The position numbers and the translations under genes are program-made. Below the pieces are notes generated by a model. That model had not been told where the DNA came from. It searched no databases and saw nothing but the letters and a program-made list of their open reading frames with translations. Shown here piece by piece: positions 60,075 through 64,000 of a stretch of DNA of 64,000 nt. This stretch comes from a virus: positions 32,001 through 96,000 of IMG/VR virus record IMGVR_UViG_3300006316_000001; one strand, 5' to 3'. Position 1 is the stretch's first letter. Every line of letters starts with the position of its first letter.

Positions 60075-60572
60075 TTAGAATTCATTGAACATTTCGCATA
60101 GAAGCTCGTTAACTTTCTCTTTACTCATCTCAGCAGCCCAACCTGCAGCCTGAACAGCATCATCAACAGACCGACCACAACAACACCAACCAGCGGAAGA
60201 GGCGGAACGAGCAGCCCTCCGCGCACCATCATCCCAACCAGCAGCCCAGCTAGAAGAATCAGCATTAAGAGCGACATCACGAGCGCATTCGGCTTTTGGG
60301 TCATTAAGAAAATTGACAATTGAGTCATACTTATCTGTGAGTGGCATTATTTTCTCAATGTTAATTAGGGCGCAATCGCATGCAAATCTTGCGATTCTAT
60401 TTGTTGGTATGGTTTTACTAGCTAACCACAATAGATCGTCGTATGTATTTGCCCCTCCAACCAATGTTTCTACTTCCACACTCTCTTCAGTGTTGTTGGT
60501 TTGTTCTATGAAACGATTAAGACCTAATTCGCAAGCATCCATTTCAATCAACTCAGATTTAGAAATTTTCAT
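60075..60572 (-). CDS. Hypothetical protein, tandem paralogue B
   Basis: N-terminus near-identical to 60609..61154, same MFNEF end. Confidence 0.7.
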   Translation of the reverse strand: MKISKSELIEMDACELGLNRFIEQTNNTEESVEVETLVGGANTYDDLLWLASKTIPTNRIARFACDCALINIEKIMPLTDKYDSIVNFLNDPKAECARDVALNADSSSWAAGWDDGARRAARSASSAGWCCCGRSVDDAVQAAGWAAEMSKEKVNELLCEMFNEF

Positions 60573-60608: not shown

Positions 60609-61154
60609 TTAGAATTCATTGAACATTTCGCGTAGTAGGTCGTCTATGCAACTTGACCCACAAACATGTTGAGCTGACCGAGCAACATTAATGGCATGAA
60701 TCTTCGCGCTTCCAGAATATTTTGCGGAATATGCAGCAAAGGCGAACGAAACTGCAGTATTGGCGCAGGATGCACGAGAGTAGCGAGCCTTTTCGATAAA
60801 ACTAAAAGACTTTTCCCACAATTCATCCCGAATGTCTTTATTTATATCATCAAAATCGTCAGCAATATCATCACTTGAAGCGTTATTCAAAAAATCAACA
60901 ATCAAATCGTAGTTGTCTGTGTGGGGCTTGATATGATGTGCGACAATCAATGCGCAATCGTATGCAAATCTTACGATTCGGCGTTTCGGAATCTTCTTAC
61001 TCGCTAACCACAATAGATCTTCGTGCGTGTTCAGTCCACCAACCAATGAGGTCACTTCCACACTGTCTTCGGTGTTGTTGGTTTGTTCTATGAAGCGTTT
61101 AAGACCTAATTCACAAGCATCCATTTCAATTAGCTCAGATTTAGAAATTTTCAT
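60609..61154 (-). CDS. Hypothetical protein, tandem paralogue A
   Basis: First gene behind promoter at 61205-61233. Confidence 0.7.
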   Translation of the reverse strand: MKISKSELIEMDACELGLKRFIEQTNNTEDSVEVTSLVGGLNTHEDLLWLASKKIPKRRIVRFAYDCALIVAHHIKPHTDNYDLIVDFLNNASSDDIADDFDDINKDIRDELWEKSFSFIEKARYSRASCANTAVSFAFAAYSAKYSGSAKIHAINVARSAQHVCGSSCIDDLLREMFNEF

Positions 61155-61255: not shown

Positions 61256-61282
61256 AAAAAAGGCTCCGCTAGGGAGCCTTTT
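61256..61282 (-). terminator. Rho-independent terminator ending the DNA-modification operon
   Basis: AAAAAAGGCTCC-GCTAG-GGAGCCTTTT. Confidence 0.85.
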
Positions 61283-61283
61283 G

Positions 61284-62366
61284 TTAACCTAATAGGTCGA
61301 ATATGTTGGGTTCTGGTTCGGTCTGCTGTTCAAAAATGTGACCGCGCCAATCAATCTCACCCCGCTCTAAAAAGAACGACATCGCTTCTTTGTTGATCGG
61401 GTCTTTCCGCCCACGTTCGCCACCTTCTTTGCGAGTTTCTGACGATTGTAGTAATGAGCCATGGAGCATTTCTTTCCTTGCTTCCCAAAGTAGTGACCAC
61501 TCAATTCCGTCCCATCCCTTGGACTGAACGTCGGTGATGTCCAAAAATTGTCGGTCAAGGTAATATCCTGGATACCTACCATCTCTATTACGGAAAAATT
61601 TCTTGAAAGCGCAACAGACAGTTTCGAACCCAAGACGCTCGACTGACAATCCAAAACGACAATTCGTCTCTTTAATGATTCCATTTGCCTCTTCCTCTAG
61701 CCATTCAAGCTCTTCTTTTGTGAATTTGTGGCGGATCTTTTTACCATCCACCTTACGTTTACACCATTCATCTTTACCTAGTCCGCGACACAATCCGTCA
61801 CGGTGCGACTCAGAACCACCATCACCCAACAACAAACTTGGGATGTCAATCGGGATTCCACATACATCTCGTAGAGCCTGCATATAAAACCAGCATTTGT
61901 AGCGACCAAAGTCGTGGAACTTGATGACCTCATCCCATATGCGTTTGAAGTTCGCCTCACGATCCTCACCACACATACTCATGAACCAAGCATTCTGAGT
62001 GCCGTCACCAATGGTTTCGCGATAGGATTCAAACATCGCTGGCAACTTACCCTTACTGTAACGACAATCCACCTGATAGCGCAACTTGTGGTAATTATCG
62101 TCGTTCCACTTAGTTAAGCGGTCAAGGTCAACCAAGTCATAGTCGGGAAACTCGTTCGCCATCACATACGCTTGTGGGAGTTGATAGCTATTGGCGTACA
62201 ACCAGACGTACCATAGACGTTGTTCTTTGTTGTACTCTTGGCGATTGAACATGTAGTTCATCATCCAAATAGCAGGGTCAACATCGCCTCGTAAATACTG
62301 CCAAGCTGTGTATTGGATTAAAAGCTCGCGCCTGTTTTTGTAGTCTGGAGTGCGATAATCAATCAA
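61284..62366 (-). CDS. Amino acid:DNA transferase (aGPT-PPlase2 family; thymidine hypermodification)
   Basis: D.DP, EQRLW..WLY...Y, FP, L.YQ.D.RY.KG, FGRY..WFY.Q.L, SHRDGL, ET..C.FKK, RY.GYYLDRQ, W..LW.AR match the ViI gp247/M6 gp51-type family as recalled. Confidence 0.8.
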   Translation of the reverse strand: MIDYRTPDYKNRRELLIQYTAWQYLRGDVDPAIWMMNYMFNRQEYNKEQRLWYVWLYANSYQLPQAYVMANEFPDYDLVDLDRLTKWNDDNYHKLRYQVDCRYSKGKLPAMFESYRETIGDGTQNAWFMSMCGEDREANFKRIWDEVIKFHDFGRYKCWFYMQALRDVCGIPIDIPSLLLGDGGSESHRDGLCRGLGKDEWCKRKVDGKKIRHKFTKEELEWLEEEANGIIKETNCRFGLSVERLGFETVCCAFKKFFRNRDGRYPGYYLDRQFLDITDVQSKGWDGIEWSLLWEARKEMLHGSLLQSSETRKEGGERGRKDPINKEAMSFFLERGEIDWRGHIFEQQTEPEPNIFDLLG

Positions 62367-62797
62367 AATATGTACCCCTTGTTCATCTTAGCCAACTCAG
62401 TGATGGCAGCATGATACCCTTCACGTTCTTTATTCCATAATGCGCGAGTGAAACGTTGAGCGACCCACGGCTCAAGTTCTTTATGGTGACGGTTTAATAA
62501 AATCTTGTCTAACCAATTCATATCACACAACATATCATAGTTCAGGTGAATCAAGAACGATGGGTTCTCTTTGATGAACTGCTTACATGAAGGTGGTAGC
62601 TTGACGTCAGCAACCTTGATTTGGTCATCAATATCACCAACAATCTTCTCAATGATGGCTTGTGTTAGAAAAAGACCGCTACTGTGGATGTAGTGGTCGT
62701 TACCAATCTTCTCAACGATAGCATCAAGGAAGTTGCCCATGCGTGATTTGAGCTGTTGGATTTGCGGGCTATCTTTGTGAGCAATATGTTTATTCAT
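62363..62797 (-). CDS. Hypothetical protein inside the modification cluster
   Basis: AAGGAG SD plus ATG at 62797 directly after the amidotransferase stop; overlaps the next start. Confidence 0.6.
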   Translation of the reverse strand: MNKHIAHKDSPQIQQLKSRMGNFLDAIVEKIGNDHYIHSSGLFLTQAIIEKIVGDIDDQIKVADVKLPPSCKQFIKENPSFLIHLNYDMLCDMNWLDKILLNRHHKELEPWVAQRFTRALWNKEREGYHAAITELAKMNKGYIF

Positions 62798-62798
62798 C

Positions 62799-63572
62799 TT
62801 AGTCTCCTTTGAAGTCTTTGATGGTTGTTGGTTTGATTTGGATGTCAATCTGAAGGTCTTGTCCCAAGCCATCCGGATATCTCTTTTTGGCGAAGACTCC
62901 TGGATCAGCACGACTATATGTACCCATACCCAAAGTTCGACTTTCATAAATGACGCCATTAATGCAATCATCAATCTGGGACTTTTCTATACCTGCGCGA
63001 ACTAAAGCATCTTGAGTTGATGAGAAAATTATACCCGTCCCCAAATCAGCGTGCCACAATGGGCGTTGACCGTTGCGGAATCCCTTGATTGTACAATTGG
63101 TGGTGTCTAGTTCAAGAACCGCCATGCTAGCATCTGGGAAATACTTCAGAGGATGGATACCCTGATCAAGTGCTGCTAGAACAAGACTCGAATCATTACC
63201 ATTTTTGGCAATTAGCCCGTACTCACTTTCCCAAGTACTCGGATCAGCTTGTGTAATCACACCGTTATGGGCGATAGCTCGTTTCTCACCGAATAATGGT
63301 TGGTTGTGCTCAAGGTCACTGGTTGAGTATCTAGCGTGAGCGATAAGGACAATCTCGTTGTAATCTTCGTCAACAGCATCACTCAAGTTAAACTCACTCA
63401 GTAGAGCATCAACTGGTACTGGCTTGCTGTAACCTTGAATCTTATCATCTTTAATGTACGCCACGCCTGAAGCATGACGACCGCGTATTTGTAAATTTCT
63501 AAATACACGTTCACACAACTCAAGGTCTTCGCTGGTTGGGTGAACAAAATGCATACCGAATACACCACACAT
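62799..63572 (-). CDS. Stand-alone class II (Ntn) glutamine amidotransferase
   Basis: N-terminal nucleophile MCG, RG.HASG, AHARYST, NQPL, AHNGVI, NDS, RN..RPL. Confidence 0.9.
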   Translation of the reverse strand: MCGVFGMHFVHPTSEDLELCERVFRNLQIRGRHASGVAYIKDDKIQGYSKPVPVDALLSEFNLSDAVDEDYNEIVLIAHARYSTSDLEHNQPLFGEKRAIAHNGVITQADPSTWESEYGLIAKNGNDSSLVLAALDQGIHPLKYFPDASMAVLELDTTNCTIKGFRNGQRPLWHADLGTGIIFSSTQDALVRAGIEKSQIDDCINGVIYESRTLGMGTYSRADPGVFAKKRYPDGLGQDLQIDIQIKPTTIKDFKGD

Positions 63573-63582
63573 AATAATGCTC

Positions 63583-64000
63583 CTATTTGATGTCTAAATC
63601 ATTAATGAACCACGTACAATCAGGATTATACTCACCCACACCACTTGTGGACAAGAACTCTTCCTTTGTCTTTCCATAATACGGATACCCAGAACACATT
63701 CCAGGACGGTTTTCGTAGTTTGTGCACACCCCATTAACTAGATGCTTACATAGGAAGTGGCTCGCTTTCTGTGCCCATTTGCGTAGACCTTTGTCTTTGT
63801 ATTTGAACATCTGTGGATTGATCTTCTTGGCACGACGCTTCTTTATTGGAATCAACATGTCAGCGACTTTCTGACGTTCATCACTGTAGTCAGACAAATC
63901 CCAATCAGCTCTATTATCAGGGAATTTGCGAACAAAATTTTTGTAGCCTTGAGTGGCGACAATACGAAGGACTTTACAACAGTCATAGCAGCGCTCGCCA
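63583..64000 (-). CDS. YkgJ/CxxCxxCC-family cysteine-cluster (Fe-S) protein, 5' truncated by window edge
   Basis: Frame is open to the edge and reads GERCYDCCK...; C-terminal CKHL.NG.CTNYENRP.MC.GYPY. Confidence 0.8.
   Translation of the reverse strand, partial: GERCYDCCKVLRIVATQGYKNFVRKFPDNRADWDLSDYSDERQKVADMLIPIKKRRAKKINPQMFKYKDKGLRKWAQKASHFLCKHLVNGVCTNYENRPGMCSGYPYYGKTKEEFLSTSGVGEYNPDCTWFINDLDIK

Follow-up and report, generated by a model that had tools for sequence, protein, structure and literature searches.

What does a stand-alone glutamine amidotransferase (GATase) do in the same transcription unit as an amino-acid:DNA transferase (ADDT; also AADT or aGPT-Pplase2)? This question is raised by the end (positions 61284 to 64000) of a 64,000-nucleotide (nt) viral sequence, here called the window, which corresponds to bases 32001-96000 of the IMG/VR record IMGVR_UViG_3300006316_000001. 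The record is a 106,815-bp genome of a marine phage, rated complete by CheckV; its bases 92001-106815 form locus L002, and an L002 coordinate plus 60000 gives the window-equivalent coordinate. We conclude that the phage very probably uses a gene set of this type to remodel thymines in its own DNA. For the GATase, we put at about even the chances of an ammonia-donor pathway, in which it would feed the ADDT to form 5-aminomethyl-deoxyuridine (5-aminomethyl-dU), followed by acylation; we infer the nucleophile, the order of the steps, and the final base from sequence comparisons.

The gene at 61284..62366 (minus strand; 360 amino acids (aa), TTG start) encodes a member of the ADDT/aGPT-Pplase2 family, the placement that an earlier sequence-only reading of the window had proposed. 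Its product matches Pfam PF18724 with 78.6 bits (cut-off, 26.2) over profile positions 9-230 of 232, a result that was repeated on the genome, and phrog_3271 of the PHROGs with an E value of 5e-61. The TTG start is backed by the N-terminus MIDYR, which aligns with homologues. The ET..C motif is aligned with the essential Glu/Cys of M6 gp51, PaMx11 gp46, and ViI gp247 (i.e., FETV-CCAFKK aligns with VETV-LCKWKS of M6 gp51 and FETSGACWLKK of ViI gp247), and E248 and C252 are invariant across 22 clade members. Identity is 40-48% to a GATase-linked clade from IMG/VR and 29% to ViI gp247. A profile search of solved structures gave no sequence-level match for the ADDT or for the amidoligase described below.

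The GATase gene (62799..63572, minus strand) encodes a class II (Ntn) enzyme of 257 aa that starts with MCGVFG and matches PF13522 (GATase_6) with 27.3 bits (cut-off, 27). In an alignment of 35 family members, C2, R30, R81-Y82-T84, N103-G104, and D127 are invariant, and in the alignment with PurF, whose glutaminase domain is the best solved relative, these residues fall on the glutamine site. Among them are the catalytic Cys of Ntn enzymes, the Asn-Gly of the oxyanion hole, and an Arg and an Asp by which the alpha-carboxylate and alpha-amino groups of glutamine are bound. Because the residues that bind free glutamine are invariant and PurF is the nearest solved structure, the protein appears to be a functional glutaminase that acts on free glutamine rather than on a DNA-bound residue. 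The intact catalytic Cys and the lack of a synthase domain, both noted earlier from the window, were confirmed: the protein consists of the glutaminase domain only, 120 relatives measure 196-262 aa and none has a synthase domain, and no fused forms were found among relatives of 451-2000 aa at E values below 1e-10, which is weak evidence. Close relatives at 97% and 65% identity exist. Past the glutaminase domain, an acidic D-L-Q motif is conserved among stand-alone GATases, located at the C-terminus or close to it (GQDLQIDIQ in this protein; window 62802-62870), and may be a docking element for a partner enzyme.

Between the GATase and ADDT genes lies a 144-aa ORFan (62363..62797, minus strand), and upstream of the GATase gene is a gene for a YkgJ-like (CxxCxxCC) cysteine-cluster protein (145 aa; phrog_14785, with PF03692 just below its cut-off; 63583..64000, minus strand), which extends 20 nt beyond the window end to window-equivalent 64020. 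The sequence-only reading had described four co-oriented, tightly coupled genes with one terminator, and all of these minus-strand open reading frames (ORFs) were recovered where it had placed them. The ORFan and ADDT genes overlap by 4 nt, 1 nt separates the GATase stop from the ORFan ATG, and the 10 nt between the YkgJ and GATase genes include GGAG; the ORFan is predicted from this arrangement to be translationally coupled between the GATase and the ADDT. An intrinsic terminator (61256..61279, minus strand; AGGCTCC-CTAGC-GGAGCCT followed by TTTTT) with a 7-bp GC-rich stem lies 5 nt past the ADDT stop; it was read directly from the sequence and is absent from the list of the promoter/terminator scan. 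The promoter, TTTACT-N16-TATAAT at L002 4108-4081 (window-equivalent 64108-64081, minus strand), is directly preceded by a terminator at L002 4154-4137. Because the promoter follows an upstream terminator and another terminator stands behind the ADDT gene, the YkgJ, GATase, ORFan, and ADDT genes form exactly one transcription unit. The same promoter occurs in four identical copies on the minus strand (L002 10648-10621, 8286-8259, 4108-4081, and 1232-1205), which split the locus into a DNA kinase gene; a group encoding two amidoligases, a BCCT transporter, and a GNAT acetyltransferase; the YkgJ-GATase-ORFan-ADDT unit; and the gene that follows.

Relatives of this arrangement came from scans of IMG/VR with alignment-built profiles for the GATase and the ADDT, which identified at least 561 contigs with the GATase family and at least 555 with the ADDT clade; neither the GATase nor the ADDT, used as a single query sequence against IMG/VR, gave a match. 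We surveyed 152 related loci, comprising the 80 best GATase-anchored loci and 72 further ADDT-anchored ones. Of the 80 GATase loci, those whose contig continues have a same-strand ADDT gene downstream, and the nine without an ADDT end within ~2 kb past the GATase gene. The GATase gene lies upstream on the same strand in 54 of the 72 ADDT-anchored loci, and the other 18 each have <4.5 kb of upstream DNA. By this comparison, the GATase-ADDT linkage appears to be obligate in both directions, with each locus of sufficient length holding both genes. Of the transferase-GATase-YkgJ neighborhood named in the sequence-only reading, the GATase is conserved beside the transferase in every relative with enough sequence, and YkgJ occurs in 0 of the 152 loci. 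The usual gene order is TET/JBP, GATase, [amidoligase], [GNAT], [440-510-aa unknown], ADDT, and kinase, where brackets mark variable members, and minimal clusters are GATase-ADDT-kinase (L074 and L138) and GATase-ADDT::GNAT fusion-kinase (L022). The fusion protein (L022:3477-5060, plus strand) is a 527-aa ADDT with a C-terminal GNAT-like domain, a Rosetta-stone link between transferase and acetyltransferase. Among 99 unique loci, the amidoligase is present in 54 (~55%) and the GNAT in 79 (~80%).

That the locus serves thymidine hypermodification, as proposed from the window, gained support from a search beyond its end, which found a 5-hydroxymethyl-dU (5-hmdU) DNA kinase (5-HMUDK), a thymidylate-synthase homologue, and a dCMP deaminase. 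The 5-HMUDK (615 aa; L002 8292-10139; PF18723 with 220.9 bits, plus PF18748) is encoded ~6 kb upstream of the ADDT and is preceded by another promoter copy and by an 87-aa ORF (L002 10129-10392). The other two genes lie outside the locus; the thymidylate-synthase homologue is divergent and is a dUMP-hydroxymethylase candidate, and together with the dCMP deaminase it is a candidate source of 5-hmdU. No TET/JBP gene was found in the genome.

In the ammonia-donor pathway, the dCMP deaminase and the thymidylate-synthase-like dUMP hydroxymethylase would provide 5-hmdU, which would replace T before replication, and the 615-aa kinase would phosphorylate the hydroxymethyl group in DNA. The Cys/Glu pair of the ADDT would then expel the phosphate to leave an exocyclic methylene, and ammonia released by the GATase from free glutamine would attack this methylene to give 5-aminomethyl-dU. 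Swappable tailoring enzymes would acylate the amine: the GNAT would add an acetyl group, as a GNAT does in PaMx11, and the amidoligases, which are predicted to have the glutamine-synthetase fold, would use ATP to join to it a carboxylate from glutamate (the by-product of the GATase) or from a compound imported by the BCCT transporter. The exocyclic-methylene intermediate of an AADT has been trapped by foreign nucleophiles, and PaMx11 gp48, a GNAT, acetylates 5-aminomethyl-dU (PMC8989533). Ammonia as the nucleophile appears to be the simplest reading, the GATase being the sole constant partner of the ADDT clade. Ligases of the glutamine-synthetase fold typically activate the gamma-carboxylate of glutamate, and glutamate is the other product of the GATase, so a gamma-glutamyl-aminomethyl base is one possibility.

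The amidoligases bear on the choice between this pathway and a rival one in which the GATase would serve them instead. The two upstream paralogues, amidoligase-1 (329 codons; L002 7208-8197) and amidoligase-2 (332 aa; L002 6198-7196), have GGExNT, HxH, and ExR motifs in common, and a conserved E..E also occurs in the family. A single-sequence Pfam search of the two gave no match, and 16 of 20 family members match PF12224 (Amidoligase_2) with a best E value of 2.6e-8, the value for the phage's own copy being 0.049. The AF2 model of the 332-aa protein (pLDDT, 83.7) was matched by VIA to YbdK (Z, 11.0; rmsd, 4.4; 218 aligned), to glutamine synthetases (Z, ~10.5), and to glutamate-cysteine ligases (Z, ~10), and the motifs, the family matches, and the model together indicate that both paralogues are glutamine-synthetase-fold amidoligases. 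Such matches are in keeping with an amidation model, as the classical reaction of ligases of this fold is the coupling of a carboxylate with ammonia or an amine: the ADDT would install an amino acid (e.g., Gly or Glu), an amidoligase would activate its carboxylate, GATase-derived ammonia would turn it into a carboxamide, and the GNAT would acetylate the amine. The related loci with an amidoligase mostly have it adjoining the GATase, and all characterized clade-2 transferases use amino acids or putrescine (PMC8989533). The model nevertheless leaves the GATase without a partner in the ~45% of loci that encode GATase and ADDT and have neither an amidoligase nor another ATP-dependent enzyme for activating a carboxylate. 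Near-identical ADDTs differ in the presence of an amidoligase, whose distribution over the ADDT tree requires at least 19 state changes (well-supported branches force at least 9), and in the phage studied here the GATase gene shares its transcription unit with the ADDT and not with the amidoligases. The same three observations (i.e., clusters that lack an activating enzyme, an ADDT unchanged as the amidoligase comes and goes, and the shared transcript) argue for ammonia as the nucleophile, and we regard the amidation model as unlikely. The sequence-only reading had offered both roles for the GATase; comparative genomics favors the supply of ammonia as the nucleophile and gives less weight to the amidation of an installed amino acid.

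Several points weigh against the ammonia-donor pathway. Class II GATases normally require a fused acceptor domain with a channel, and the search among longer GATase relatives did not find a GATase-ADDT fusion. Pairs of GATase and amidoligase recur in phages that have no ADDT (i.e., PaP3/LUZ24-like, phiEco32, and OM43 phages), which fits a GATase-amidoligase partnership and thereby the amidation model. The ADDT of the phage is a long branch at the base of its clade in the ADDT tree, one of the two amidoligase genes is interrupted by a stop codon, and the comparison of the GNAT with PaMx11 gp48 revealed only the generic GNAT motif. To our knowledge, neither the GATase family nor the ADDT clade has a biochemically characterized member.

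The interrupted gene is that of amidoligase-1, which was called as 288 aa and has an in-frame TAG at codon 31 (minus strand; L002 8105-8107, genome 100105-100107, window-equivalent 68105-68107). Its N-terminal 30 codons (MNYPKETFQYGTELELGD...) align with homologues, and with the TAG read as X the whole family profile is covered (328 bits versus 262 bits for the short form). Recoding or suppression of the TAG was considered and rejected: a search of the genome found no suppressor tRNA, and the YkgJ gene has TAG as its stop codon. Because TAG is a stop elsewhere and a suppressor tRNA is missing, the codon would reflect a nonsense mutation or variation within the population, or else an error of assembly.

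The bases of M6, ViI, and PaMx11 are completed by enzymes of the radical SAM, PALP-type PLP, and DAO-type FAD kinds, and none of the three types was found in the complete genome, where controls were positive. The sequence-only reading had seen no known finishing partner; this holds inside the window, whereas beyond it the GNAT gene (L002 4159-4761; likely start Met49, 200 aa) lies ~160 nt upstream of the window end. A specific kinship of this GNAT with PaMx11 gp48 was rejected, the shared part being the generic motif.

The GNAT is encoded in the transcription unit of the amidoligases and the BCCT transporter, which is driven by the promoter at L002 8286-8259 and has a weak terminator between BCCT and GNAT. 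The transporter (457 aa; L002 4809-6182) matches PF02028 with 181.9 bits over profile positions 4-482 of 485 and is therefore full length. Its presence in a modification locus is the unusual part of the system. This could be explained if BCCT imported the substrate of the ADDT (e.g., a choline-like quaternary ammonium compound with a hydroxyl or amine), with the GATase and the amidoligases modifying the attached group or making a transferable free amide. In line with this, the closest cellular BCCT has only 28% identity to the protein, whereas a copy with 99% identity is retained on the same 14-kb phage contig as the 97% GATase relative, and ViI gp247 shows that a hydroxyl nucleophile is usable by the transferase family (PMC8989533). 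A BCCT gene is likewise found in the 5-hmdU kinase cluster of IME392, an unrelated cultured coliphage, and the two independent occurrences argue for a link of BCCT to thymidine modification. However, BCCT is absent from all 152 related loci, so that it cannot explain the conserved GATase-ADDT pairing, and it may instead be an auxiliary metabolic gene for osmoprotection. Its best solved relative is BetP, of which W189, W373, and W374 are kept while W377 is replaced by Phe and W371 by Ala; the aromatic box thus appears only partly kept, and the substrate is not deducible from the sequence. We consider an imported nucleophile distinctly improbable. A related conjecture, also unlikely in our judgment although a little less so, is that ammonia is installed by the ADDT and the aminomethyl group is then amide-linked to a carboxylate imported by BCCT (e.g., of the betaine type), which would give a permanently charged, undescribed base. 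If true, the transporter would be the first to be encoded by a virus for the specific supply of a DNA-modification precursor, and the reaction would be the first DNA base amination coupled to a glutamine amidotransferase.

The BCCT of IME392 (vB_EcoM_IME392, MH719082.1; L090 7055-16593) is 30% identical to that of the phage studied here. Its cluster encodes, in order, a methyltransferase, an unknown protein, BCCT, a PIG-L deacetylase, two unknown proteins, an HMUDK helical domain, a P-loop protein, a thymidylate-synthase homologue, and an HD nucleotidase. IME392 has no PF18724 transferase. Phages of this lineage have T-modified genomes (PMC12686479).

The GATase, amidoligases, GNAT, and transporter might also be auxiliary metabolic or cell-envelope-modifying genes that simply stand beside the transferase. 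In older literature cited in PMC10580990, amidoligase/GATase pairs of phages were suggested to act on the cell wall or on metabolites. We give this explanation hardly any credence, as the synteny with ADDT and kinase is reciprocal and strand-conserved in >100 independent contigs, a fusion of ADDT and GNAT exists, and ADDTs and GNATs of the relatives have polymerase-like C-terminal tails. The family-B DNA polymerase in the related loci (L007-L164) ends with T/S-L-E/D-x-F/L-F. A similar tail occurs in 37% of the ADDTs, 35% of the GNATs, and 41% of the TET/JBP-sized proteins there, as compared with none of the 92 GATases, none of the 42 amidoligases, 1 of the 75 kinases, and 3% of other ORFs. This distribution points to tethering of the enzymes that act on DNA in the manner of the polymerase, with the sliding clamp as a plausible anchor. 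In the genome studied here, the corresponding tails are TLEDFFC (DNA polymerase; genome 13188-15845, minus strand), NIFDLLG (ADDT), TIKDFKGD (GATase), and INDLDIK (YkgJ); the tail pattern for this genome was chosen after the tails had been seen, and the count is a lead only.

The sequence-only reading had called the enzyme set unusual, a description that finds no support, because GATase and AADT have already been reported in metaviromes as uncharacterized machinery. Lee et al. (2021) described metavirome 5-HMUDK/AADT genes that are accompanied by domains of amidoligases and of glutamine amidotransferases (PMC8989533), and a PNAS paper of 2026 listed GATases among the T-hypermodification machinery (PMC13229309), in both cases with no function assigned. 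The metavirome clusters (TET/JBP-GATase-amidoligase-GNAT-AADT-kinase) resemble the present locus in their GATase family (38-48% identity), ADDT clade (40-48%), amidoligase and GNAT families, and gene order. They make 5-hmU after replication with a TET/JBP dioxygenase, whereas the phage studied here lacks TET/JBP and uses the thymidylate-synthase homologue; it also has two promoter-driven units and the additional BCCT, YkgJ, ORFan, and second amidoligase genes. Thus, a gene set of this type has already been published; new here are the pre-replicative source of 5-hmdU, the two transcription units, the second amidoligase, the transporter, and two lineage-specific genes.

The pathway to 5-acetylaminomethyl-dU in PaMx11 involves the gp49 kinase, the gp46 glycine:DNA transferase, the gp47 FAD lyase, and the gp48 acetyltransferase (PMC8989533). 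The present phage resembles it in having a pre-replicative 5-hmdU source, a DNA kinase for 5-hmdU, a GNAT within the cluster, and a clade-2 transferase whose Glu/Cys motif is the same; 5-aminomethyl-dU is an intermediate in PaMx11 and is only proposed for this phage. No FAD lyase (gp47 homologue/DAO) is encoded in the genome; in its place is an obligately linked, stand-alone GATase, and the amine would accordingly derive from the ammonia of glutamine and not from oxidative cleavage of glycine. Two amidoligases, the transporter, YkgJ, and the ORFan are additions relative to PaMx11, and the GNAT is not specifically gp48-like. ViI gp247 and M6 gp51 share the Pfam family and catalytic motif of the ADDT, despite the low identity to gp247 given above; the finishing PLP decarboxylase and radical SAM isomerase of ViI/M6 are absent from this genome, and ViI and M6 have no GATase. 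PurF has the same type of Ntn glutaminase domain, and its ammonia displaces (pyro)phosphate from a carbon, which is formally the reaction proposed here. Its acceptor domain is fused and has a known ammonia channel, in contrast to the separate 257-aa glutaminase of this phage, for which the presumed acceptor is a DNA-bound transferase.

Thymidine hypermodifications shield phage DNA from restriction and other nucleases and are a source of enzymes that derivatize DNA in place. If ammonia is the nucleophile, the locus would represent a glutamine-dependent DNA amination and a shorter route to the PaMx11 intermediate, and this would explain the presence of the cassette on >500 IMG/VR contigs. The phage adds a pre-replicative (hydroxymethylase) version of the cassette, together with a transporter that may be an instance of viral import of building blocks for DNA chemistry.

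The remaining two genes of the four-gene unit appear, by comparison of the loci, to be lineage specific and co-transcribed with the GATase and the ADDT. The YkgJ protein, with C-x2-CC and C-x-NY-x2-RP-x2-C clusters, scored 21.8-22.4 bits against PF03692, just below the cut-off of 23, and matched phrog_14785 with an E value of 2e-19. The suggestion that this Fe-S protein tailors the base found no support, and membership of the protein in the pathway was rejected as unsupported, since the gene is missing from the related loci and its phage relatives occur in unrelated contexts. In 45-kb Vibrio phages, the genes of its nearest relatives (39% identity) immediately precede that of the large terminase; others lie among small early genes of Mydovirus phages or belong to 80-kb Vibrio phages, away from modification genes. 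The closest cultured relative (39% identity) is that of Vibrio phage vB_VpS_LMAVpVPP (L092 5001-5405), which overlaps the large terminase gene and occupies the slot usual for the small terminase subunit. For the 144-aa ORFan, already described as being of an unknown family, Pfam and PHROG searches gave no match, and a search of 1.84 billion representative proteins revealed one real relative (88% identity). Its ESM Atlas model (pLDDT, 0.39) gave no usable structural match, and the gene is absent from all 152 related loci.

Cultured phages offered few counterparts. A megablast search of the region against 50,697 phage records gave zero matches, and the GATase family was not found in cultured phages, the best tblastn matches being PaP3-like phages at 24-25% identity. 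By DNA ligase (37-40% identity), the closest cultured phages are the Vibrio phages henriette 12B8, 2.058.O, and V6Aob and Colwellia phage 9A, and both ADDT and kinase are absent from these marine relatives.

Downstream of the four-gene unit, the minus strand encodes two adjacent paralogues of 165 and 181 aa (window 60075-60572 and 60609-61154). Their first 35 residues are near identical (MKISKSELIEMDACELGL...) and their C-terminal halves are divergent, and the repeated early promoter recurs ahead of the 181-aa gene (window 61232-61205).

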